DNA of 64,000 nucleotides, from positions 3,472,001 to 3,536,000 of the forward strand of contig JAGIQG010000040.1 in assembly GCA_024679065.1 (NCBI GenBank), given 5' to 3'. The notes beneath the pieces were generated by a model. The model ran no database searches. It saw nothing but the letters and a program-made list of their open reading frames with translations, and was not told where the DNA came from. This stretch comes from Sphyrna mokarran (taxonomy: Eukaryota). A program made the position numbers and the translations under genes. Positions within the stretch are counted from its first letter, which is position 1, and the number at the start of each line of letters is the position of its first letter. This document shows, in pieces, positions 16,671 to 45,970 of the stretch.

Positions 16671-17010
16671 TATAGTCAACATGGGATTGTGGGCATCTGC
16701 ATGTTCAGTCCACTATCAAAACAGAACATCAATATTTTAATGAGTCACAAACCTCGTAATTCGCCACCGGAATCAAATCAGCCGTCAGAGAGCGGGGTTT
16801 GTGATTATGAGTGATTGTTATCTTCTATGAAATGACAGATATTTAATCCAGCAGTGGTTATAGAATAAATCGCAATGACTTTGCAATAACTGAAATCCGG
16901 AGGTGACAAATGAATGGATCAAAAAAGTTTCAGTAACTGATTGGGTCAGTGAGTAGCTGTTTTTTGCAGTCCGCTCTGTAACGTCTCTCTCCTTTTTTTC
17001 TTTCTTCCAG

Positions 17011-17909
17011 CCAACTTGATGGCGATCATCATCCTGTCCCGCGGACGGTGCGGACTCTCGCGGTGCATCACCTACTACCTAATGGCGATAGCAGTGACCG
17101 ATTTCCTTGTCATGGTTACCGCTGTTATCCTCAACCGGATAGGTGGCATTTACTTCAGGTACAGTGTCCTATCTACCACCCCCGGATGTGCTGTCAGCAC
17201 CGTGCTGGTGTATGCAACACGGGATGGTTCAGTCTGGTTAACAGTGGCTTTCACCTTAGACCGGTATGTGGCCATCTGTTGTCAAAGACTAAAGGCCAGA
17301 TATTGCACAGAGAAAACAGCATTGATGGTTATAGGACTTATCTGTACTCTAAGCTACGTCAAGAACACCCCTTTCTACTTCACTTATCAGCCCTTGTACA
17401 TCCTGGATGGGGTACCCTGGTTCTGTGATATTATGTCCAGCTATTACTCTTTGCCTATCTGGCAGGCATATGACTGGCTGGACCATATATTAACGCCCTT
17501 TCTACCATTCCTCCTCATTCTGATTCTCAACGCTCTAACAGTGAAGCACATTTTAGTGGCCAGCAAAGCTCGCAGAAGGCTCCGGAGCACCGAGAATCAT
17601 GGAGATCCAGAGATGGCAAACCGCAAGAGATCCATTATCTTGCTGTTCACCATCTCGCTCAGTTTCCTTCTCCTGTGGGCCACCTACGTCGGGCATTTCC
17701 TCTACGTGCGGATTACGGGTGAGGCCTACTTCACCGGTCTGGATTTCAATGACCCACACTTCATCCTTCAAGAAACTACAAACATGCTCCAGTTACTCAG
17801 TTCTTGCAACAACACCTTTATCTATGCAGTAGCCCAAACCAAGTTCCGAAATGAACTGAAGAAGGTTCTGTTTCTTCCCTTCTCCATTTTCACCAGTTAT
17901 TTAGGTTGA
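17011..17909 (+). CDS. GPR139/GPR142-like orphan GPCR #1, coding exon 2 (full protein ~322 aa)
   Basis: Strong acceptor cctttttttctttcttccag; 7TM pattern: YLMAIAVTD, SVWLTVAFTLDRYVAICC, TPFLPF, RKRSIILLFTIS, LQLLSSCNNTFIY; AATAAA near 18028. Confidence 0.92.
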
Positions 17910-20576: not shown

Positions 20577-20585
20577 TCATTTGAT
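20577..20585 (-). CDS. IGHM: IgM heavy chain TM2 exon (IK*)
   Basis: Acceptor gtctttcttttgcag|ATC AAA TGA gives cytoplasmic tail K-I-K, a variant of canonical KVK. Confidence 0.9.
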   Translation of the reverse strand: MK

Positions 20586-20727: not shown

Positions 20728-20855
20728 CTTCACCAGAGTGACTGCAGTGCTGTAGAAAATGCTCAGGAAGAACAGGACGATGAATGTAGAAGTGGTTCTC
20801 CACATGTTGCTGTTATCATCCTCATTGTCGTCAATCCAGGTGCGGTCGACGGAGT
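20728..20855 (-). CDS. IGHM: IgM heavy chain TM1 exon
   Basis: ccccag|(D)[42 protein letters not shown]|gtgaga; acidic spacer plus antigen-receptor TM motif. Confidence 0.95.
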
Positions 20856-23885: not shown

Positions 23886-24277
23886 TCATTGACATGAATT
23901 AACAGTGTCCATCAATGCAAGAGAAATGTTCACAAAACTGGGTTTACCGCTGGATTTATCAACTGTTCTGTTGATGATCTTCAAGGGAATGGCTTCATGT
24001 CCCACCACACAGGAGTAAGAAGCGCCACTGGTCCACTCCTCTGCTGCAATGGATAACAGGCTGTACATGAAGAAGGAGCTATTGCCGTTCTCCGCCATCA
24101 CCTCGGTGTTCCTGTAGTTCCTGGGATTCACCGGCTTGTCATTGACAGTCCACTTGACAAAGATCTCTCGGGGGGAGAAACCTCTCACTAAGCAGCTGAG
24201 GGAGACGAATCTCTGAGCGGAGACTTCTTCTGCCGAGGGCAGGAGGACGGAGACGTACGGTTCCCGCGGATTGGGAT
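23886..24277 (-). CDS. IGHM: IgM Cmu4 exon plus secretory tailpiece (internal membrane donor after 23948)
   Basis: tttctgcag|(D)[42 protein letters not shown]...[24 protein letters not shown]|[21 protein letters not shown]; matches shark mu chain with NIS sequon and penultimate Cys. Confidence 0.97.
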
Positions 24278-24763: not shown

Positions 24764-25072
24764 CTGTTTTCTTGTGGATGGATTTTCTTAAAGGAGTTGG
24801 CAGTTCCTGATGGCTCACCACGCAGTCAAACACGGCCCCACTTAGCCAGGATTGTGTCGAGATGTTTAAGTTGCTGACCACGCTGTTAGGATTCTCCCCA
24901 GGCAATTCAGCAATCTCTGATTTCAAATATTTTCTGTCTCGGATCCAGGACACGTTGACTCCATAAGGGACATTAGAAATGATGCAGGTTAAGGTCACGG
25001 TCGCCTCCAATAAGACCTGCTGCATTGGTGGTGGCTGTATCCTCACTGTGGAATCATGGCACTGGGAAGGAT
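24764..25072 (-). CDS. IGHM: IgM Cmu3 exon
   Basis: 309 nt, phase 1-1, ttcacag|...|gtgagc; C1-set (TLTC..VSW..FDCVVSH); retains N-terminal Cys in DPSQC. Confidence 0.95.
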
Positions 25073-26089: not shown

Positions 26090-26395
26090 CCAGAGATCCG
26101 CTGATGTTCTGACTCTGGGTGAATCCTTGATGAGTGACCTGGCAGGTATAGACCACTTTGCTGATCCATTCTCGAGTGGAGACTGTCAGCCGACTGCTGG
26201 CCGAGAATTTCCCTTTCACTTTCCAGGCAGGGGAGGTGACAATTCCTGAATCCATGGGCTGTCCATTCTTCAGCCACGTCACAGTCACTGACTTTGGCTT
26301 GAAGTCGATGACTGAACAGACGATGGTTGCAAATTTCCTGCTAATGATTCCGTCACTGGAACTCATGGTGAGGATAACGGTTGGAGGAATATCAC
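26090..26395 (-). CDS. IGHM: IgM Cmu2 exon
   Basis: 306 nt, phase 1-1, gttgaag|GT GAT ATT...TCT CTG G|gtaaga; FATIVC..VTWLKNG..SRLTV..EW..YTCQVTH. Confidence 0.95.
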
Positions 26396-27842: not shown

Positions 27843-28142
27843 ATTGCATTCCAATGCTCTTGACTGAGCCGCTGTGTCGAACCTCGCAGTCGATTTTGCT
27901 GCATGCTCCCTTTGACTTGATGATGGTTAACTGACTGCTCATGGTATAGGTTCCATTCGCGTTTCTCGCTGACGGGTAGATCTTAAACCCAGTGGCAATC
28001 GGCTGCCCATTTTTCTTCCAGGTCACTTCGGAGACATCTGGAGAGTATCCCATCACCAAACATCCGTAGGTGACAGAATCGCCGGAGTTGTGTTGCTGAT
28101 AGGAGGAGACCAGACTGTAGAGAATGGGTGGAGACGGTGTCG
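27843..28142 (-). CDS. IGHM: IgM Cmu1 exon
   Basis: 300 nt, phase 1-1, cttccccag|(A)TPSPPILYSLVSSYQQHNSGDSVTYGCLVMGYSPDVSEVTWKKNG...MSSQLTIIKSKGACSKIDCEVRHSGSVKSIGMQ(C)|gtaagt. Confidence 0.95.
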
Positions 28143-29608: not shown

Positions 29609-30823
29609 AGTGACCAAAGAGGTGGATGGGGGTAAGGCAGTTGATGTGGTATATATGGACTTTAGTAAGGCGTTTGATAAGGTGACCCATGGAAGACTTC
29701 TGCAGAAAATGCAGATGTATGGGATAGAGGGTGATTTAGCTAATTGGGTTAGGAATTGGCTAGCAGATAGAAGACTGAGGGTGGTGGTTGATGGGAGATA
29801 TTCATCATGGAGTTCGGTGACAAGTGGTGTACCTCAGGGGTCTGTTTTGGGGCCCCTGCTGTTTGTAATTTTTATAAATGATCTGGATGAGGGTATTGAA
29901 GGATGGATTAGTAAATTTGCAGATGACACTAAAGTCGGTGGAGTGGTAGATAGTGAAGAGGGGTGTTAGAGTTTGCAGAGAGACTTGGACAAGTTGCAGA
30001 GCTGGGCCGAGAGGTGGCAAATGGAGTTTAATGTGGAAAAGTGTGAGGTAATGCACTTTGGCAGGAATAATAAATGTGTAGAGTATAGGGCTAATGGTAG
30101 GATTCTTAATAGTGTTGATGAACAGAGGGATTTTGGTGTATTTGCGCATAGATCCCTGAAAATAGGCAGTCAAGTCGATAAGGTTGTTAAGAAGGCATAT
30201 GGAGTCTTAGCTTTTATTGGTAGGGGGATTGAATTTCGGAGCTGCAAAGTCATGTTGCAACTGTACAAAACCCTAGTGCGGCCGCACTTGGAGTATTGTG
30301 TGCAGTTCTGGTCCCCACATTATAAGAAAGATGTGGAGGCATTGGAGAGGGTACAGCGGAGGTTTACCAGGATGTTGCCTGGTATGGAGGGCAGGTCCTA
30401 TGAAGAGAGGTTGAAGGATTTGAGGTTGTTTTCATTAGAAAGGAGCGGCTAAGAGGGGATCTTATTGAAGCATATAAGATGATTAGAGGTTTAGATAGGG
30501 TGGACAGTGATAGCCTTTTTCCTAGGATGGAGAAAGCTAGCACGAGGGACACAGCTTTAAATTAAGGGGTGATAGTTATAGGACGGATATCAGAGGTAGG
30601 TTCTTTACCCAAAGGGTGGTTCGGGAGTGGAATGCCCTGCCTGCGGCAGTTGTAGATGCGCCAAGTTTGGTGGCGTTTAAGAGGTTAGTTGATAAGTATA
30701 GGAAGAGAAGGGAATAGTTTAGTTTGGAGGGTCATTGCTTTTTATATTGGTCGGCGCAACATCGAGGGTCGAAGGGCCTGTTCTGTGCTGTAATTTTCTA
30801 TGTTCTATGTTCTATGTTCTATG
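29609..30823 (+). mobile_element. Young 5'-truncated CR1 LINE in the JH-Cmu1 intron (antisense to IgM)
   Basis: RT motifs [28 protein letters not shown]; one stop and small indels; (TTCTATG)4 tail; AGTGA at both junctions (29609-29613, 30824-30828). Confidence 0.97.
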
Positions 30824-32310
30824 AGTGAGGGTGAGTTAATGAATAAGAGTACATGTGCGATGGCAGTTGATTGACGGAAGATGGGTAAGTGAGCGCGAGT
30901 GAGTGAAGTTCTCTGAGTGAGGATGGGAAATTGAGGGTACGTGAGTAAGTGTGGGTGAAGGTGAGAGACAGTGAATAACTGAGGGTGTGTCAGAAAGAGT
31001 GGGTGAATAATTGTAGCTGAGCATGAGTGAGGACATGGAAATGAAGCTGGATGGTTGAGGGTGTGAGATATAGAGGACGACTGAGGGAGTGTGAGAATGT
31101 GCTGAACGTGTGAGTGAGGACGTGAGAGTCAAGGTGAGTGAGTGAACGTGTCTGTTGTGAGAATGAGTGACTGACAATGAGTGAGAATGGGTGAGTAAGT
31201 GTGGGTGAGCGAGAGTGGGTGAGTGAGGATGTACAAGTGGGGATGAGTGAAGGTGAGTGTGAGGGTTTGTGAGTGAGGAAGGTTCTAAATGAGTGCGTGA
31301 GGGTGCGTGAGTAAGAGTGGATGAGTGAGGGTGATTGAGTGAAGGGGAGGCTGTGCATTGATGAGCATGTGACGGAGAGCGAGTGAGCATGAATGATTGA
31401 AAGCGAGAGAGGCTGAGTCTGTGAGAGGAGTGAATGAACGTGTGTGAATGTGGGTGAGTGGGGGTGAGTGAGGGTGGGTGAATGAGAGTGAGTGAGTAAG
31501 TGAATCTGCGTGAGGGTGAGCGAAGGTGGGTAAGTGATGGTAGATGGCTGAGAGTGAGTGAATGTGGGCATATGAGTGACTATGAGTAAGTGAGTGTGTG
31601 AGGGCAAATGAGTCAGAGACTGTGATTGAAGGTGAATGACTGACGTTGAGTGAGGATGTGTGAGTGAGTGAGGATGGTGAGTGTGAGTGAACGAATGTGA
31701 GTGAGTGAGGGTGTGAGGATGAGTGAGTCACATGAACGAGGATGAGTTAGGATGAGAATGAATTTGTGAGAGTGAATGAGGGTGAATGAGTGATGGTGAG
31801 TGAGTGAGCGTGGGTAAGGATGGGCGAGTGAATGCGGGTGAGTGAGTGTGGATGAAGTATTAGAGAGGGTGTAGGTGAATGAGTGAGAATGATGAGTGAG
31901 GCTGGATGAGTGAGAGTCGGTGAGTGAGTAAAGGCGAGGATAAGGTTGGTGAGTGTGTGAGGGTGGGTTAGTGAAGATGGGCGAATGAGGACGTTGGTGA
32001 ACGAAGGCAAGTATAGGTGATTAGGTAAGAATGAGTGAATGAGCGTGTAAGAGTGGGTGACTGAGTGAATATGAGTGAGTGAGAGTGAGTGACTCAGGGT
32101 GAATGAGGATGGATGAGTTCTGAGAATGAGTGAGTAGGATGAGTGAGTGAAAATGACTGAGTAAGGGTTAGTGAGAAAGGCTGAATGAGTAACGCTGAGT
32201 CAGTAAGGGTGTGTCAGCAAGGGAAGATGGGATAGGTGAGTGAGTGAAGTTCTTTGAATGAAGAAGAGAGATTGAGAATGAGTGAAATAGTGTGATGCTT
32301 GAGGGTGAAA
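30824..32310. repeat. Strand-asymmetric (GTGA)n-like low-complexity tract
   Basis: ~1.5 kb of gtgagt/gagtga/gggtga variants, C-poor on the + strand. Confidence 0.9.
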
Positions 32311-32854
32311 GTGTCAGTGGACTACCTCCTCCTCTTCTGCTCCATCGACCTTGCCCCGATTCTCCACAATGGACAGTTTTCAGTAACAGAGTTGTGTAAA
32401 GTCAGACACCAGTGTAGATCATTGGGCAGCTGATTTAATATTGGTGCCTTTCTTAAGAAACACGTATCGCTGAATAAATAGGCAGACTGAGGAAGCTGGA
32501 AGGGAAGATTACAGCAAAGATAGAATAAGTCACACAGGAATCAAACGCCATGTTTACACCAGTATTGGGGAGCCCTCCTTATTTATTGTCTTTGTGTCCG
32601 GTGTAACACATGGAAATCCCCACTTCTCACCTCATGTTGGACGGAATGTCATTGATGAGGCAGTAGAAGATTGATCGTCCCCAGGCTAACTGCTGCAGTG
32701 ATAACTGAACTTGGATGTTTGACCTCCAACAATAAATACTATCTTGCTTTGTGCTAAGTATGACTACAAAGAGAGAAGAATTTCCCTCCGATTCTTATTC
32801 ATTTGATTTTTACTCGAGCTCCTCGATCACACACTCATTGAAATGAGGAAGAAG

Positions 32855-33170
32855 GTAGCACGATGGCATCGTGATTAGAGCTGCTGCCTCACAGCGCCAG
32901 GGACGTGGGTTACTGTGTGTGAAGTTTGTAAATTCAATCTGTGTCAGCTTGGGTTTTCTTCAAGTGTTCCTGTTTCCTCCCACAGTCCAAAGATGTGCAG
33001 GTTCGGTGGATTGACGGTGCTGAATTATCCCTTAGTGTCAGGAGGACTAGTTCGGCTAAATACATGTAGTTATGGGGTTATGGCTTTAGTGGGATTGCTG
33101 TCGGTGCAGACTTGATGGGCTAAATGGCTTCCTTTTCACTGTAGGATCCTCTGCTTCTATTCTCTGATGT
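32855..33170 (+). mobile_element. HE1-type SINE, near full length
   Basis: gtagcacgatggcatcgtgattagagctgctgcctcacagcgccagggac...cccacagtccaaagatgtgcagg...gcagacttgatgggctaaatggc. Confidence 0.8.
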
Positions 33171-33189
33171 CAAGGACTGTCACTCTGAC

Positions 33190-33794
33190 GTATGTGAAAA
33201 GGAAAGTGTGTGAGAGGATGTTTGAGTGTGTGTGAGAGATACAGAGAGGGAGAGGGTGAATGTGCATGTGAAGGTGCATATGAATGATAGACTGTTTGCA
33301 CGTGTGGGAGACAGTGGGCTGTGTGTGCAAGAGGGGAGAGTATGTGTGAGACAAAGGATGATTGATATAATGTGAGTGTCAGATAGAATGTGTATTTGAA
33401 GAGTTATTGTTTGTGTGTGTGTGTCTCTTCTTGGAAGTGTGAGTGTGTGTGTGTGTGCGTGTGTGTGCGTGTGTGTGTGTGTGTGTGTGAAGGGGCGGGG
33501 AGACTGTGTGGGGATTGTGTGTGAGAGGGTACTTCTGTGAGTGATTGAGTGTGTTTTTATGTGAAAAGGAATGTGTCTATGCGAGATACAGGACGTCTCT
33601 GAAAGACAGTGTGTGTGCTTGAGAGGATGGTATGTGTGCGTGGGAGAGAGTGTTGTGCTCATATGAAAGACAGTATGTGTAAGAAGGAATGCCAATTGGA
33701 ATGCAAAATAATATGTTCATGAGTGTATGAAAATGTTCACAGGATTGCATGTAAGCGAGAAAAATGTGTGCAATGGGTGTGAGAGATAGAAGCA

Positions 33795-33826
<32 letters not shown>

Positions 33827-34770
33827 AAGGGCAGGGAGAGTGTGTGTGAGCGAGAAAAAGTGTGAAAATTAGAGTCAATGCGTGAGTGTGCGTGAGTGAA
33901 ATAACCATTGAGAGAACATGTGTCAGTGACAAGTGAAATGTTTAAGAGAGATACATTGTCTATACATGTCTGTTCGTGTGTGAGACAGGGAGAGGCTATA
34001 TGCGAGTGATGATTATGCGTGTGTGAGATAATGACCGTTTGAAAGAGAGAGGGATATGTGCCCATGTGAGAGAATGCGTGTGCAAGTGTTCATATAAGAG
34101 AGAGACAGAGCATATGAATGAGTGTGAGACGGAGTGAGAGTATGGAAGAGGGAATGTGAGAGGGATAAAGGGATAATGTGTGTGCGTGTGTTTGTGTTTG
34201 TTTGTATCTCTGTATGTGTGTGTGTGTTAGAAAGAGAGAGACAGATAGAGTGTGTTAGAATGTGTGCATGTATCTACGTTTGTGAGAACGTGTTTGTAAG
34301 AAAGCAAAAATGTACAGGTGTCAGATAGTGTGTCCAACAGGGAGAGAAATATGTACATGTATTTGTATGTGTTTGAGAGAGAGAGAGAGAGAGGTGTGTG
34401 TGCAAGAGAAATTGTGAGAGAGGGCGTGTGAATAAATGTGAGATAGTTTGAACGTGTGTGACAGAGTGCAGGAGAGAGAGTGCATGTGCAAGAATGTGAA
34501 ACTGCTTATGTGAGAGATAATGCATGTGACGGTGTGTGCGTGTGAATGCTTTTGTGTATGTGAGTATGAGGGACCGATTGAGAGAGAGTATGTATGTATT
34601 CGTATTTGACAGAGTGCATGCAGAACGTGAGAGAGACAGAATGTGTTTGAGTGTGAAAGGGTGACCGTATGAGAGAGAAAGTGAGTATGTACGTGTGTGT
34701 GCATGTGTAAGAGAATATGAGATTGTATATATGTGTATTTATGTGTGTGAGAGTATGTGATGTATGTAAG
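33190..34770. repeat. Degenerate (TG)n/(GA)n tract
   Basis: Pure (TG)n at ~33443-33488 and ~33796-33824; (GA)n at ~34375-34392. Confidence 0.9.
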
Positions 34771-37700
34771 TCTTTATCTGGCTGATTCAGTCTGGCAACG
34801 CAACCTCACTCCACACACACACTCACAATAAGTGGGAGTGACAATGTGGGCCGCGGGCCAACGGTTGGAAAAACATAAAAATCTTTCACAAGTCAGTCTA
34901 AACTGAATAATTTCCTCTTTCCTCAATGAGCGAAACTTGTAAAAACTCAAGAAATTTGACACAATCCGGGACAAAGTGACCCATAAGATTAACAGCCCCC
35001 TCATTTATCCATTCGTTCTCTTCATCACTGACAAGCAGTGACAACAGTGTGTATTATAGACAACATGATCAGCAACAACTCACCAAGACTCCATAGAAAA
35101 CACTATTCAAACCCGCTGCTTTACATCGTAACAAGAAAAGAAAGCAGCCACTACCACCCGTAAGCTCCCCAACAAGACACACACCATCCCGACTTGAAAC
35201 AATATCTCAGTTCCTTCTGATCAAAAACCTGGGACTTGCGCCTAACAGCACGGCGGACGCCTGCAGCGTATGGACTGCAGTTATTCACGGATGCTTCATG
35301 CAAACAATTTCTCAAGGAACAATTATTGAAGGTTAAAAACTCTGGTCTGGTCTCTAAAATGCCTTTAAAAGATTGAAAATAAGATGCAAATGAATTTAGC
35401 CCTTCGACTTAATACTAAACAGGTTAGGGACTGCTATAGTACGGAGTACGATACAGTAAACCTCACTTTGCATTTGTTCATCGAACATTCCCATCATTGC
35501 TTAAAAATCACCCTATTCTCCCTCTACATTATTGCGTTTTTGCTCTCTCTGACGGTCACAATATGCCGTATGAGTCTCATTTCTGAGACGCCGAGTCAAA
35601 CATCAAGTCCAACTATCACATTTTTCACACATACAATTTTATAGCAGAAATAAATGAAATTTCACTCTCTGAAATAGTGTAGAAAGAACCAGAAGATTCA
35701 CAACCAAGCAGGCAGATTCCCGATCTCAACATAGTTACCACTATTTGATTCCAATTGATCAATGGCCAACATAAAACGACAGAAAATCAATAAATTATTT
35801 TAAATTAAACTGATATTCATTTCAAAACTCCTTTCGACTTTTAATTATTTCTCTCTCACTTCTCGAAAACTATGTAAAAATGGAATTTCGCTAAAAATAA
35901 ACAATCAAAAATAACAGATTCAATGCCCCTAACAGAGATGCAGTGGCGCAGTAAGAATTAAACAAACTAAGGAACATTTACATTGAAAAGCATTAACTGA
36001 TTCAATCTAATTTGTTAATTAAATGTAATCAACACAATTATCACAGCAAAACACTTTTTCGAGCTGAGCACAGCTGAGTAAAGAAATGTTTTGTTTCTGA
36101 ATTCATTTTAGATACAATTAAATATTCTCTAAAACAGGTGATACTTTACACGCCAGTGCAATATTCAAGATCTTTTGTTTTGAATTAATCAGCACAGATA
36201 TTATATTTTAAATTATTGTTAATTGCCAATTAGTTTGCCCGTCAGCTGATTTGTACTCCGTAATAAAATGAGTTTTCAATCATTCAAAATGCGTTTCTAC
36301 CTCCAACATTGTTAAATAATTAGGTTCCAATTAAATTTTAGACAATATTAAATAATAGTTTCAAATTACTGAATGGAAACATTCAGACATCTGTCATTCA
36401 TTTACTTAAATCTAATCACATTGTAATATTTCACTCTTATTACATTGTTTTATTATAACCTAGAAATGTGTTAAAATGTATACTTTTGAATTTGTGTGGG
36501 CCGTAACGGCCTGACACTTTGAAATCACAGATAAAGAATGTAATATTCGGATACAAAAACTGCCAAAACCCAAAGTCTGCAAAACTCGTAATCCAGTGAA
36601 TAAGAACTTAATTGGGGTATACGATTAATGCAAAGAATCTTGTTCAACTGAACGCTACTGTGTAAACAGCATGTTACTATTGAAATAGTTTCCGGAATTG
36701 TCACAAAATATTTCCAGTCTGGAAAATTTTCTGGTCGTGTTAATTGTGTGAATATTAAAGATTACTACCAGGTTATATTAATATACAATTATCCTAGGTG
36801 AAAATGGAGTTATATTACCGATGAATAATTGTTTGATTTATATTCATTTTACTATTGAATTTCTTAATGAGAAGTTTGTGATTGCAGCAACGACTTAGTG
36901 TCCGAATGAGCATTCTAAGTCATGATTTTACTTGAATGTGTAAACCTGAGTTAAAATTTAAAAACGTGTTGTAATATCTTTTAGATTTTGTTTTCCCAAA
37001 ACATGCTTATTTTCTCCCGACAAGGATTTTCAAACTCAAAGATTGCTTGCATTCATCCAGAATACGTCTAACCGCTCAGCGGTACTGAGTTTAAATAATG
37101 CAGAAATAATGCCGCAAAGCCAATCCATTTCACAAATTTTAAATATTCATAGTGATCGAATCACAGAATCTCCTCAACAGATGCACACCAGAACACATCA
37201 ATAAGGAATGAACTCGTTTCACGAGAACCACTCAATTATCCATTCAACAGAATCAAATATAACATTGAAAGAAAATCTCAGTACGGAATCTATGAAATTA
37301 AATCTTAACCAAATATTAAACCGAACAGAATCTGGAATAATATCAATAGCGTTGTGAGGAGGTGTAATATGTCAAACAAATTAATGTTTAAACTTTATCA
37401 CATTTCATTCATATGGAATCATATTTCAAACATATTTAAACATATGGATAGTAAATGCTTCTGCCATCAAATGCCACCGAAATTAAACATTGCAAGTACC
37501 CCAAGTTGTGAGTGCGCTGACAAACTATGTTCTGAACGAGCAGCATAAACCGCGGTTTAGTTTAAAGTGCAATTATCCTTTAAGATTTTAAAAATACAAA
37601 TACAATACAGCTTGTCTGGTTTCTACGTGCAGTCATGCGTCAAGCTATCAATCACAACGCGTATAACAGCTCGGTGTCATCCAGTTTAAACAATGCAGAA

Positions 37701-38358: not shown

Positions 38359-38406
38359 CTGCAGTCACCGTCACCATGGTTCCTTGGCCCCAGTAGTCGA
38401 AGTAGT
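38359..38406 (-). CDS. IGHJ: JH segment (YFDYWGQGTMVTVTA)
   Basis: WGxG motif; donor GCAG|gtaaga in phase 1 to Cmu1. Confidence 0.97.
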
Positions 38407-38444
38407 CACAGTGTCACATTCCTGGGCTGTGTTATACAATAACC
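38407..38444 (+). promoter_or_regulatory. JH recombination signal, 22-bp spacer
   Basis: CACAGTG-22-ACAATAACC. Confidence 0.95.
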
Positions 38445-38760
38445 GTCCCTGCACAAAATAGACAGAAGACCAACATTATTTTAAATATTCACAAACCGGA
38501 GAAAAAGCAAAGTCAATTAATGTTCATTAAATTATACTTGTATTTCTGGATGTCATTCTACATTCATAAATGACCCTAATGTTTTATATTTCACAAAGCA
38601 TGTTATTGAAAATACCAATTGATTATTGAGAAATTATCACAGACTTTCTATATTCATTCTTGTCATGTTGTCAATGCTGGACACAAACAATACTGTACTG
38701 TGATTAAAGTTGGATTGCAAAAGTGACAGTTATGCAGGCTCAATCCATTGGTGCTGAGAA

Positions 38761-38818
38761 GGTTTTTATATTGATAGTAACTGCTGTGCCACTCAGGTAT
38801 CACAGTGAGACAAATACT
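38761..38818 (-). other. IGHD: D2 segment (ATACCTGAGTGG, 38789-38800) with intact 3' 12-RSS and defective 5' RSS
   Basis: 3' RSS CACAGCA-12-ATAAAAACC; 5' side CACAGTG-ag-ACAAATACT (2-nt spacer). Confidence 0.9.
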
Positions 38819-39122
38819 GCGGCAGACTGTCAACTGTAAAATGCAGAGAGTTAATTTCACTCATATTACCAAAGCCGGTTTCCATCTCATTTAAGACCGA
38901 GTCAGTGATATATTTCAATTTTTACTGGTCATGATATTGATAAAAGGGATTAGAAACTTATTCACAGTGCGCATTCAGTATGTAAATTAATAGCAATAAA
39001 GTTGAAGTATTTTATGTCTTTTAAAATCAATACTGCTTCTAGCTATTATTTTGTTGAACCCTCATTTTATTTGGCATTCGGCAATGGCACTGATCACTTA
39101 TTTAAGCAAAGTCCTTCTCTGA

Positions 39123-39205
39123 AATTTTTGTAATAGGATATCGCTTTTCTCAGCTCTGTGACTCACTTCTATAGTATCACAGTAACAAACATCCGTACAA
39201 ATACT
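39123..39205 (-). other. IGHD: D1 segment (ATACTATAGAAGTGAGT, 39161-39177) with 5' 12-RSS and 3' 22-RSS
   Basis: 5' CACAGTA-12-ACAAATACT; 3' CACAGAG-22-ACAAAAATT; the 12/22 pattern typical of shark D1. Confidence 0.92.
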
Positions 39206-39542: not shown

Positions 39543-39581
39543 TGTTCTTGTCTGGCTTCAGACCAGGCTTCTCTCGCTGTG
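39543..39581 (-). promoter_or_regulatory. VH recombination signal, 23-bp spacer
   Basis: CACAGCG-23-ACAAGAACA directly after YYCARD. Confidence 0.93.
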
Positions 39582-39886
39582 GTCTCTTGCACAGTAATAG
39601 TTGATGGTGTCTTCGATCTTCAAGCTTGTCATGTCTAAAGCAAAGATGTTGTTTGCAATGTCTTTGGACGCAGTAAATCGATTCTTAATTGATGAGGCGT
39701 AGCTGTTGCTTGATGAACTATAGTAGCTAACCAGCCACTCCAGCCCCTGTCCGGGAACCTGTCGGATCCAGCCCATCCAGCTGTTGCCAAAATCAAAGCC
39801 ACTGGTTTTACAAATCAGTTTCAGGGAGCCTCCGAGACGGCCGGTCTCTGCCTCTGGCTGAATCAACACAATCTGCGACTGGACAC
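39582..39886 (-). CDS. IGHV: VH exon (germline, unrearranged)
   Basis: tttttacag|(G)[52 protein letters not shown]...[11 protein letters not shown]; canonical Cys, Trp and YYC present. Confidence 0.97.
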
Positions 39887-40010: not shown

Positions 40011-40056
40011 CTGATAAGAAAATCAGCAAGAAACTGAGAGAAATCGCCGAACTCAT
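40011..40056 (-). CDS. IGHV: VH leader exon (MSSAISLSFLLIFLSG)
   Basis: 46-nt hydrophobic signal exon, phase-1 donor TCAG|gtggtt, 124-nt intron; in-frame upstream ATG at 40068. Confidence 0.88.
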
Positions 40057-40147
40057 CTTTCTGGCCATTTGGGGGAAATGATTGTGTCAGGAGATCAGTG
40101 AACAAAGCAAGTCCCAGACTATTGGATTCTGTTCCCAGTGAGCGGCA

Positions 40148-40154
40148 TTTAAAT
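40148..40154 (-). promoter_or_regulatory. TATA-like element of the VH promoter
   Basis: ATTTAAA ~95 nt upstream of the leader ATG; no octamer seen nearby, as expected for shark VH promoters. Confidence 0.4.
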
Positions 40155-41974
40155 GCCTGGCAGAAGGGGGCAGCGTTTCAAGCGCCTCCTGTTGATTCCC
40201 TGGTGGAGGCGGCAACTGGATCCACGTCCTACCTTCCACACCCCCAACAGAATGGACTCCGAGATTTTCAATAGGTTAATATTAAAATTGATATTTTATC
40301 TGTATCGGGACATTCTTTTGGCTGAATATATTCATCGTATTGTCTTCATTATTTCTCGCGGTGATATTGCAGTTCATCATCTCTTTGTTTTAAAAACTAA
40401 TTTCATTGTAAATATGGTGTTTTTATTGCCACGCCCCTAACAAGAACTTAAATCTAAAAATTATGCAATAGCATTTTCCGAAAATAAAGAGACCATCGGT
40501 CTATGTTGGAACAATTCCGGGTCTCTGTCACATTACAATAATAAAGCATCATTTATCGGAAGAATTGTTATCGATTTCTGTAACTAAATGCGGGCGATGA
40601 ACAAAATAGTTGCATTTTCAGTGCAGATAGCTGTCATTGTACAATATGAGTTTGGCGAAGAGAGGAAAATCTCACACAATACAATATTTCTCCTTATATT
40701 TCGCAAATTGTCCCTTGAAGACAGTTCTGTGAAAATAAGAATCCCGCTTGCCTGATAATCAAATAGTGATTTAACAGAGAAGCATAAAATTGACATCGAT
40801 TTTGACAGGAAAGTTAATTAATCATAGCGGACACGGCGATCAGCAAATTTTTCCTTCAGCATCTAAATCATTGCAGCTCACTCTGTTGGCCACCGGCTGT
40901 CTAACATCATTAATATTGGGAGCACAGGATGTCAGGACTTTCAGCAAATTGCGCAATATCACAAGAATAAATGTTTTAGCTTCCATTGAATCAGGTAATG
41001 AACTGCTCACTTCTACAATCATTGGCAGCTCTGAGAGGAACTCTTCAATAATTGAAATCAGATTATACTGTACAATAGAACACGCTGCAAATTAGATATA
41101 AGAGACGCTGCTGTTTAAATGAACTTCAGCACTTTCAGAATATTCCAGAAATCCCCGCTGTTCCTGTCCAATTTATGGTGTTCTTTTAATAATATTTCGA
41201 TGCATTTTTGCCATTGTTCTGATCTCAATGCACTGGGGAATTGGGATCGTCAACATCTCTCTCTCTTGCATTTCATGAAGTGGTTAATAAACAAACTTTA
41301 ATTATTGGAATGACATTTAATTGGAAATTATTCAAATGAAAAAAAAGTTTGCTTTTTTTTGTTTTGCGATACTATTTACTCACATAATGAACAGGACATT
41401 GAATAAAAATATTTCATTAGAATGATTATGATTTAAAATGTGTCTTTCTGGTGGAAATGAAGCATTTATTATTTAAATGGCTTGATATCATTTTGTCCAT
41501 TCAAGTTCACGCTAATCTGTCCCAGCATTATTTGATAGCAATCCAGGCTGCTGTCAAATGCTCAGTTATTGATAGGAAGCATCTGGAGGTGTTTGTGCTG
41601 TAGATCAAAAATCAGTTTTCTCAGTACTGACCACTTGGCTGCGAGCCAACTTAAAACACTTCATATTGTCAATGAGGCCTATTTATAAACAAATTTACCC
41701 AACAACATCCATCCCGAGTTTGTTGGGAGTTAAGAAGCTGATCCTCACGAAGAGAAATATCCAAATGGATCAGATGGTTCATTTCCTGCGAATGCTGAAC
41801 CTTCATATACAAGATAGAAAGAGGGAACATTATTAGTTTGAGGAGGGAGAATTGTAATATTTGACATACTTGGTTCTTTCACGTAAACAAATCACTCAAC
41901 ATGACCTCACCCAAATTAATGAAGGTAACAGAGCGAAAAGTAAATAAAGTAACGAGAAATATTGTGAGACTTAC

Positions 41975-44425: not shown

Positions 44426-44649
44426 CTTCATTTTACATGTTTTAAACATAATTTTGTATGTTTCAATCACATTACTACTTATCTTTCTAAACTCAAGTGG
44501 ATAATGAGGTGGAGATGGAAGCGTTGGATTGGGTGGACACATTTAGATGTCTTACAACACCAAGTTAAAGCCCAACAAGTTTATTTGGAATCACTAGCTT
44601 TCAAGGCACTGCAACTTCATCAGGTGAGTCAAATGAATATAGGTCCAAT

Positions 44650-45970
44650 CGAAAGAATCTCGCCACAAAAGAGAGTCCCGCCAATCCCAGTATCGGCTGC
44701 GCTTCCCATGCACTCTTTATTAGGAAAGGAGAAGAGAACTACAGCTCTACACGAGGAATGGTCATACGAAGGCCCGGAATAACTGCAGTGAGACTTCCTT
44801 AATTCCGAACTCAAATTTTCTTGCAACAAATGCCTTCCTAGTTGCTTGCTATTCATATCTCTAAATTTCATTGACTGCCGTACAAGGACACCCAGATTCA
44901 TTTGAACATCACACTTCCTAGTGTATGTTGTTTTCTGCTTTGCACACCAGTATATAACTGCACATTTAGCTACGTTATACTGCATCTGCCACGTGTTCAC
45001 CCATTCACTCAGATTGTCCAGATCACATTGAAGCCCCACACCACACCACACTCTCCTGCACCCCACCACCCCCTTCCCCACCCCGCCTTATACCTCACAA
45101 TTCTGTCAAGCTTTGTATTGCCCGCCGTTTCGGATATGCTACAATGATTTCGTCATCCAGATTCCACAGGCCACAGTGTCAGAGAGGTTGGTTCAAATCC
45201 CGGTTTGAGTCACTGCCTGTACTGTGTCCGCTCGTTCTCCCTGTATCAATGTGAATTTCTTCCAGATGCTCCGGTTTCTTCCCACAGTCCGAAAGTCATT
45301 CTACATAAATGCATTGACCATGCTAAATTCTCCCTCAGGTTTGTGTAGCCGAACTGGAGTGTGGTATCTCGGCGATTTTCACAGTAACATAATTGCAGTG
45401 TTAATGTAGCGTATTTGTGACCTATAAACAATTTGAAAAGTTGGACCCTGACTGCCATTCGGGAAAAAGTCCCCACTTGTTTCCACTCTCTGTTTCTTAC
45501 CTGTCAACAAATTCTATACCTATGCCAATACGTTACTCCCTATACAACGTGCTTTTATTTGGCCTACTAATAATTTATGAGGAACCTTCAAATATCTTCT
45601 GAAAGTAAAAATACACTAAGTACATTGGTCCCCCTCTCCTTGCCTATTGTATTATTTACACCCGCTAAAAACACATGTAGGTTTGTTCTGAATGACATTT
45701 CTTTCTTCAGGCAATGCTGTCTTCAACCAGCTCCGTTAATGCTTTCCAAATATTTTGCTATCATACCTTTCATAACAGTCTCTAACACCTTCGCTGATAC
45801 AAACATCAGGCTATAATTCATCAGTTACTTTCCCTTCCTTTGCATACATTGCGGTTACATTCTATAGGAGCTGTTCCAGAGTGTATCGATTTTTCGAAGA
45901 TGACAACCCATATTTCCAGGGCCATTTCCTTTCATACTCTGGGATATAGGTTATCAGACGCTAGTGAGTT
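44650..45970 (-). mobile_element. Decayed CR1 RT fragments interrupted by a SINE
   Basis: ORF 44629-45081 LQCDLDNLSEWVNTWQMQYNVAKCAVI. Confidence 0.7.

Follow-up and report, generated by a model that had tools for sequence, protein, structure and literature searches.

A 10-nt deletion in the D2 5′ recombination signal of a hammerhead shark IgM heavy-chain cluster, a likely young pseudogene

Elasmobranch IgM heavy chains are encoded in VH-D1-D2-JH-Cmu miniloci, as described in the nurse shark (PMC2435157, PMC5192425). The segments are spaced by ~400 nt, the spacers of the recombination signal sequences (RSSs) follow the pattern 23/12-22/12-12/23, and the constant part comprises four C exons, a secretory tail, TM1, and TM2. 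In the nurse shark, rearrangement is confined almost entirely to the segments of one cluster and follows no set order (PMC2435157). Non-productive members are recorded there as IgM pseudogene clusters (PMC2435157, PMC5192425), including G2C, G6, G7, and G8, in a family whose members arise by duplication and are lost again (PMC2435157). IgM1gj has three C domains, CH2 being missing (PMC5192425).

The nonamer has been reported as the main determinant of RSS activity (PMC212687), and a 12-RSS with a 13-nt spacer gave 11% recombination, with 14 nt being undetectable (PMC7753069, citing Akamatsu 1994). Mouse Jbeta2.6 has an open coding sequence and is silenced only at its recombination signal (PMC212687). 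Non-canonical heptamer-nonamer pairing, which could give rare non-standard joins, is described beside the canonical signals of mouse TRBJ1-2 and TRBJ1-7 (PMC6857471) and for the cryptic nonamers of V(DD)J fusions (PMC7605257). A full-text literature search returned neither a shark cluster with a collapsed RSS spacer nor a nonamer re-registered onto a heptamer inside a D segment; key primary papers on shark Ig lie outside the coverage of that search and may describe RSS-defective pseudogenes.

The window analyzed here is a 64,000-nt stretch of the Sphyrna mokarran genome (contig JAGIQG010000040.1, positions 3,472,001-3,536,000; G000:C994 in locus coordinates). One complete IgM heavy-chain cluster of the cartilaginous-fish type lies on its minus strand: leader, VH, D1, D2, JH, CH1-CH4, TM1, and TM2. 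The V-D1-D2-J part spans ~2 kb with all segments in the same orientation, and Cmu1-4, the secretory tail, and TM1/TM2 were all found. The layout, segment spacing, and constant exons are those of the nurse-shark miniloci; the cluster differs from them in having a D2 5′ spacer of 2 nt, a J spacer of 22 nt, and no Cys15 in CH1. In a protein search, the nearest named proteins were both IgM chains from triakid sharks, with 77% in CH1 for Triakis scyllium and 81% for Mustelus asterias; no close orthologue was found (2 matches among 80 candidates, which is weak evidence). When the V-D-J DNA was searched against the genome, 42 matches were returned, the best 30 of which were taken as loci (L001 being the window cluster), and five more places were added later. 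The closest sister was only 80% identical, and the window cluster was therefore considered a singleton lineage.

The frame is open in the leader, V, J, CH1-CH4 and their secretory tail, and both TM exons, with no stop or frameshift in ~1.8 kb of exons. The first-pass annotation had called the gene intact; this is true of the exons and overstated for the cluster, in which cis-signals and conserved residues carry additional private changes. A TATA-like promoter box (40145-40156, minus strand), TATTTAAATA in most sisters, is privately CATTTAAATG here, and its first position is T in 27 of 30 loci and C in the window cluster only. Read over 40156-40145, most sisters have a palindromic box (GTATTTAAATAC), and the palindrome survives both changes made in the window cluster (GCATTTAAATGC), by chance or by strand-templated repair. 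The leader exon (40011-40056, minus strand) ends in the donor CAG|GTGGTT (intron side 40010-40005). The donor is GTGAGT in 26 of 30 loci, and the window cluster alone lacks G at +5 and alone has CAG on the exon side. The VH exon (39582-39886, minus strand) has 7 private changes at conserved columns, including A91I and I92N next to YYC.

Downstream of VH, the V 3′ RSS (39543-39581, minus strand) is CACAGCG-23-ACAAGAACA, with a core identical to the family majority. D1 has a coding part of 17 nt (39161-39177, minus strand), a 5′ RSS, CACAGTA-12-ACAAATACT (39178-39205, plus strand), and a 3′ RSS, CACAGAG-22-ACAAAAATT (39123-39160, minus strand), in which both the heptamer and the nonamer are privately degraded. 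The 12-nt coding part of D2 (38789-38800, minus strand) is followed by the D2 3′ RSS, CACAGCA-12-ATAAAAACC (38761-38788, minus strand), with a C2T change in the nonamer. The J 5′ RSS, CACAGTG-22-ACAATAACC (38407-38444, plus strand), has a spacer 1 nt below that of 28/28 sisters (23); none of the listed short-read contig pieces matches exactly over this difference, which may be a 1-nt miscount within a run of G. The spacers of the V (23), D1 (12/22), D2 3′ (12), and J (22) signals are all as annotated in the first pass. The JH exon (DYFDYWGQGTMVTVTA) lies at 38359-38406 on the minus strand.

The constant exons, all on the minus strand and open, are CH1 (27843-28142), CH2 (26090-26395), CH3 (24764-25072), CH4 with a secretory tail and terminal Cys (23886-24277), TM1 (20728-20855), which resembles the sisters, and TM2 (20577-20585; IK-stop, read from the sequence). 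In CH1, Cys15 is replaced by Tyr; it is kept in 25/26 sisters and in both named relatives. This Cys presumably has a role in heavy-light linkage, and a PDB search gave no alignment fixing its role. A Cys-to-Trp change in CH2 is weak as a lesion, with Tyr at that place in 5 of 25 in-frame sisters. A loss of a C domain as in IgM1gj was suspected from three C exons and ruled out by the finding of CH1 at 28142-27843. With four C exons and four separate segments, the cluster is neither IgM1gj nor a germline-joined IgM.

Several features of the surroundings were recorded. In the J-C intron, 30800-34800 is an extended tract of degenerate (CTCA/CA) repeats, strongly GC-skewed and partly common to sisters, which could be relevant to switch junctions. 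A ~1 kb block of this intron, present in 4/5 aligned sisters and partly in the fifth, is absent at ~36530; it was ruled out as a lost enhancer, as its conservation was 0.74-0.79 versus 0.74-0.83 in the flanks, it is incomplete in L099, and it yielded no shared motif. Fragments resembling LINE reverse-transcriptase ends lie at 51-608, 29970-30449 (within the J-C intron), and 44632-45087. The cluster is flanked by two single-exon ORFs, 16953-17906 (plus strand) and 61593-60673 (minus strand), of 318 and 307 aa, GPCR-like by eye.

The D2 5′ RSS (38801-38818, plus strand) reads CACAGTG-AG-ACAAATACT: the heptamer (38801-38807) is perfect consensus, and the nonamer (38810-38818) follows after a spacer of 2 nt. 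This spacer is 12 nt in 30/30 sister D2s (28 among L002-L030, plus L091 and L094; L030 has no D2 or J and hence is outside the count). In the alignment of paralogous D2 flanks, the difference is one 10-nt gap, private to the window cluster, with TGTC on either side and the microhomology at 38809-38812. This 10-nt deletion between two TGTC repeats, which probably arose by slippage or microhomology-mediated repair, cut the spacer from 12 to 2 nt. The 10-nt loss proposed in the first pass was thus confirmed. It had been read from a comparison with D1, with which D2 does share the nonamer, but the paralogous D2 is the right comparator: ACAAATACT in D1 is a private change from ACAAAAACT, whereas most D2s of the sisters have ACAAATACT as their nonamer. 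From DNA run X1, a Logan contig of 375 nt (depth 16.1) was identical to 38565-38939, with 0 differences and 0 gaps, and so reproduces the 2-nt spacer from short reads and excludes assembly error at the D2 spacer. Since X1 may be the assembled animal and contigs drop variants, this match speaks to assembly error and not to other individuals or zygosity. At 11-13 or 22-24 nt from the D2 heptamer, the best replacement nonamer has 6/9 mismatches, in line with the earlier observation that none stands at the 12-nt position. Rescue of the native heptamer by a cryptic nonamer was found neither at these distances nor, by reading, at 33-35 nt.

The effect on V(D)J joining was followed by enumerating all 12/23-legal deletions and inversions, up to five steps. 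Without the D2 5′ RSS, 0/39 reachable configurations gave V..J, in agreement with the claim that VDJ joining cannot be finished by the normal route, and six V..J products became reachable when the D2 signal was taken as normal. Inversion offered no rescue. Read-through of the 360-nt D1-D2 interval was rejected as well, the three frames having 7, 13, and 8 stops. Six RSSs with spacers of 12 ± 1 or 23 ± 1 nt that allow a V-to-J route, as expected of a functional cluster, are thus not present, and the cluster has a disabling recombination-signal lesion of the kind expected of a pseudogene cluster. RAG could still join V to D1 and D2 to J, and would then stall at VD1-D2J, which is the expected end state in view of the almost wholly intra-cluster, unordered joining of the nurse shark. 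For the same reason, and since the cluster has one D2, a single RSS lesion would disable the whole shark gene, whereas in Jbeta2.6 it disables one segment.

The same deletion brings the nonamer into a 13-nt distance from another CAC, that of CACTCAG at 38790-38796 within D2 coding DNA, which was missed in the first pass. The resulting candidate, CACTCAG-13-ACAAATACT (38790-38818, plus strand), has CAC at heptamer positions 1-3, a spacer within 12 ± 1, and a near-consensus nonamer. Apart from the five intact RSSs, it contains the sole V-to-J CAC with a nonamer of ≤2 mismatches at 12 ± 1 or 23 ± 1 nt, and the register arises from deletions of 10-12 nt only. A CAC would stand in this register by chance with a probability of 5% from the local background, or 17% from the D2s themselves, 5/29 of which (sister L005 among them) have GTG at the place of the cryptic heptamer. 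The predicted cut, 38789|38790, would leave 1 nt of D2, and the joins formed would be V-D1-N-J, retaining next to nothing of D2. As the cut is 1 nt from the D2 3′ heptamer, trimming of at least 2 nt would kill one of the two signals in either joining order. In TRBJ1-2, TRBJ1-7, and the V(DD)J fusions, by comparison, a non-canonical pairing occurs without what is seen here, namely a germline deletion re-registering the native nonamer onto a candidate heptamer inside D and leaving a 1-nt D.

The strength of the candidate was estimated from SARP-seq values (PMC9723617 table), which were obtained with core RAG in 293T cells and a 12-nt spacer and serve as a proxy, the assay not being a shark one. 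The cryptic heptamer plus 2 nt, CACTCAGGT, recombined at 0.0125% (replicates 0.021, 0.016, and 0.00014) versus 0.0955% for the native CACAGTGAG, or 13-16% of native (PMC9723617). After the 13-nt penalty, and before trimming losses, an activity of 1.4-1.8% of normal is predicted. CACTCAG has neither T6 nor the favoured YpR step (PMC10536018). The heptamer plus 2 nt of V in nearly all clusters has a value of 0.0135% (PMC9723617), the V signal being a 23-RSS; because the cryptic one scores as well, the leak in sharks may exceed the prediction. With some 25 clusters in working order, leak products would probably be too scarce to make a difference.

Lesions were also surveyed in the 28 sisters with the full V-D1-D2-J layout, and clear ones were found in five: L003 (CH2 frameshift), L004, L009 (CH3 stop), L025 (CH1 stop), and L029. 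This count is a floor, since CH4 was seen at 17/30 loci and TM1 in 2/3 sisters fetched. Knock-outs at the RSS level occur in 2/28 sisters, L004 and L029, which share a disabled D RSS with the window cluster; the latter differs from the lesioned sisters in having no stop or frameshift. L004 is an older pseudogene hit at the same D2 5′ signal (heptamer TACAGTG), with a J heptamer CACAGTC and a CH1 frameshift. L029, on the window contig (G000:C994, ~8.7237 Mb), has a 26-column deletion that took most of D1 and its 3′ heptamer. What is left, CACAGTG-10-ACAAAAACC, comes from inside the old spacer and is a second register made by deletion; if usable as a 12-signal, it would allow V-D1-J. At L095 (G000:C994:7404000-7407500), V and J stand without intervening RSSs as an in-frame germline-joined VDJ; L092 and L093 also have V and J without intervening RSSs and look joined, yet are out of frame or broken. 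Joined V-J contigs were present in runs X1 and X3 as well. L023 and L027 have the same 6-nt in-frame deletion in JH.

The age of the lesion was approached through substitution patterns. The branch of the window cluster is long (dS 0.128). Its dN/dS was 0.53 [0.32-0.94] in CH1-3, versus 0.53 on the other branches (25 loci), 0.50 [0.19-1.62] in the V framework, versus 0.70 (30 loci), and 0.12 [0.01-0.33] in CH4 (17 loci). These values come from pairwise distances fitted to a FastTree topology, which gene conversion could distort; the frameshifted L003 CH2 and L004 CH1 and loci lacking exons were left out, giving 25/30 loci for CH1-3 and 17/30 for CH4. Relaxed selection was not detected on this branch, dN/dS being equal to or below that of the others, which fits recent loss or continued use. 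With 3.9% of substitutions creating stops, and frameshifting indels taken as 3-7.5% of the number of substitutions, the exons would have stayed open through neutral drift over the whole branch with P of 1e-7 to 3e-12, and the neutral part is at most ~11-19%. The cluster was therefore functional for most of its history, followed by recent death or by partial use that continues. The loss, if such it is, would be recent, the exons having had no time to collect stops.

Other changes are compatible with early decay and not decisive: those in the D1 3′ RSS, the J spacer of 22 nt, D2 3′ nonamer C2T, the leader donor, the TATA-like box, CH1 Cys15Tyr, and V A91I/I92N. The heptamer plus 2 nt of the D1 3′ RSS has a SARP-seq value of 0.016%, versus 0.33% for CACAATGCT of the nearest sisters, and is thus ~20-fold weaker (PMC9723617). 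The window cluster ranks first in private changes in V (7) and CH1 (11), but L023 has 10 in CH1, and long-branch sisters without a clear lesion have similar numbers. With 6 substitutions in its RSS cores, it is not an outlier: 2/27 sisters have more and 6/27 as many. The leader donor, too, shows a gain, the CAG on its exon side. Relatives gave no date. In run X2 (organism B), three pieces matched D1 and the end of V at 96-98%, and none reached D2 at ≥89%; runs X3 and X4 (organism C) gave only pieces ~85-96% alike, of which those reaching D2 continue with a normal spacer.

Taken together, the window cluster is likely a young pseudogene, since the 2-nt spacer left by the 10-nt deletion likely blocks the D1-D2 join. 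The first-pass annotation had offered three readings, and recent silencing is the best supported of them, with the open frames bounding the neutral time and purifying selection on the branch. It is extremely improbable that the 2-nt spacer is an assembly or consensus error, given the identical X1 contig and a gap that has a microhomology signature and no homopolymer context. A cluster with dead VDJ assembly could also have its parts kept in trans, Cmu as an acceptor of VDJs from other clusters or VH as a donor to the TCR-delta D. We consider this unlikely, although inter-cluster switching and VH-TCRdelta trans-rearrangement are reported in the nurse shark (PMC4279169, PMC5192425, PMC12227049), another IgM cluster (L026) lies ~60 kb off, the TM exons are intact, the V RSS is unchanged, CH4 has a low dN/dS, and the J-C intron retains most sister-shared blocks. 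Recency explains the intact exons equally well, the CH1 Cys is lost, and the promoter and leader-donor changes would hurt a V donor.

Use of the re-registered signal is an alternative that keeps the cluster within the 12/23 rule. D2 would then be a 1-nt adaptor from a 22-signal to a 12-signal, and D2-less, short-CDR3 antibodies would be made often enough for selection. The CAC, the 13-nt spacer, and the native nonamer are all there, in a register that few deletions give; CACTCAGGT retains measurable SARP-seq activity, an RSS overlapping the normal one is used in vivo at mouse TRBJ1-2 (PMC6857471), and the exons are under purifying selection. Against these points, a CAC may stand there by chance at the frequencies given above, the heptamer lacks T6 and the YpR step and is near nil in one of three replicates, the predicted activity is low even before the ≤1-nt trimming limit, and the partner D1 3′ RSS has decayed and not improved. 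We hold this use to be quite unlikely, and it is more doubtful still that the cluster is a working V-D1-J locus supplying short-CDR3 IgM, with D2 as a 1-nt adaptor linking a 13-signal to a 12-signal. The V-to-J connection might also be made in violation of the rule, through cleavage at the D2 heptamer alone, a 22/22 D1-J join, or hybrid joints moving the D2 3′ 12-signal onto V or D1. When hybrid joints were allowed in the route search, V-J, V-D1-J, and V-D1inv-J became reachable, and the D2 heptamer is perfect. Hybrid joints and 23/23 joins are, however, rare in normal cells. In vitro cleavage does not absolutely need a nonamer (PMC10536018), but RSS activity is set mainly by it (PMC212687), and such a route appears very improbable. 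The suggestion that the locus is a natural test of heptamer-only recombination was wrongly framed: with a cryptic 13-spacer RSS and hybrid joints as rule-abiding leaks, a rare product alone would not show rule-breaking.

If the cryptic 13-signal were used at a useful rate, it would mark a route from a two-D to an effectively one-D cluster. If the adaptor reading were true, a D segment would be turning into a pure signal converter, and shark clusters could change the number of D segments with 12/23 compatibility kept. As a young pseudogene, the cluster belongs to the ordinary birth and death of shark Ig clusters, and its main value is that of a natural reagent. Rearrangement that starts and does not finish would allow the stalled VD1-D2J and the spacer strictness of shark RAG to be measured, and with a Cmu that has no VDJ of its own, whether this Cmu is expressed would be a clean test of inter-cluster switching.
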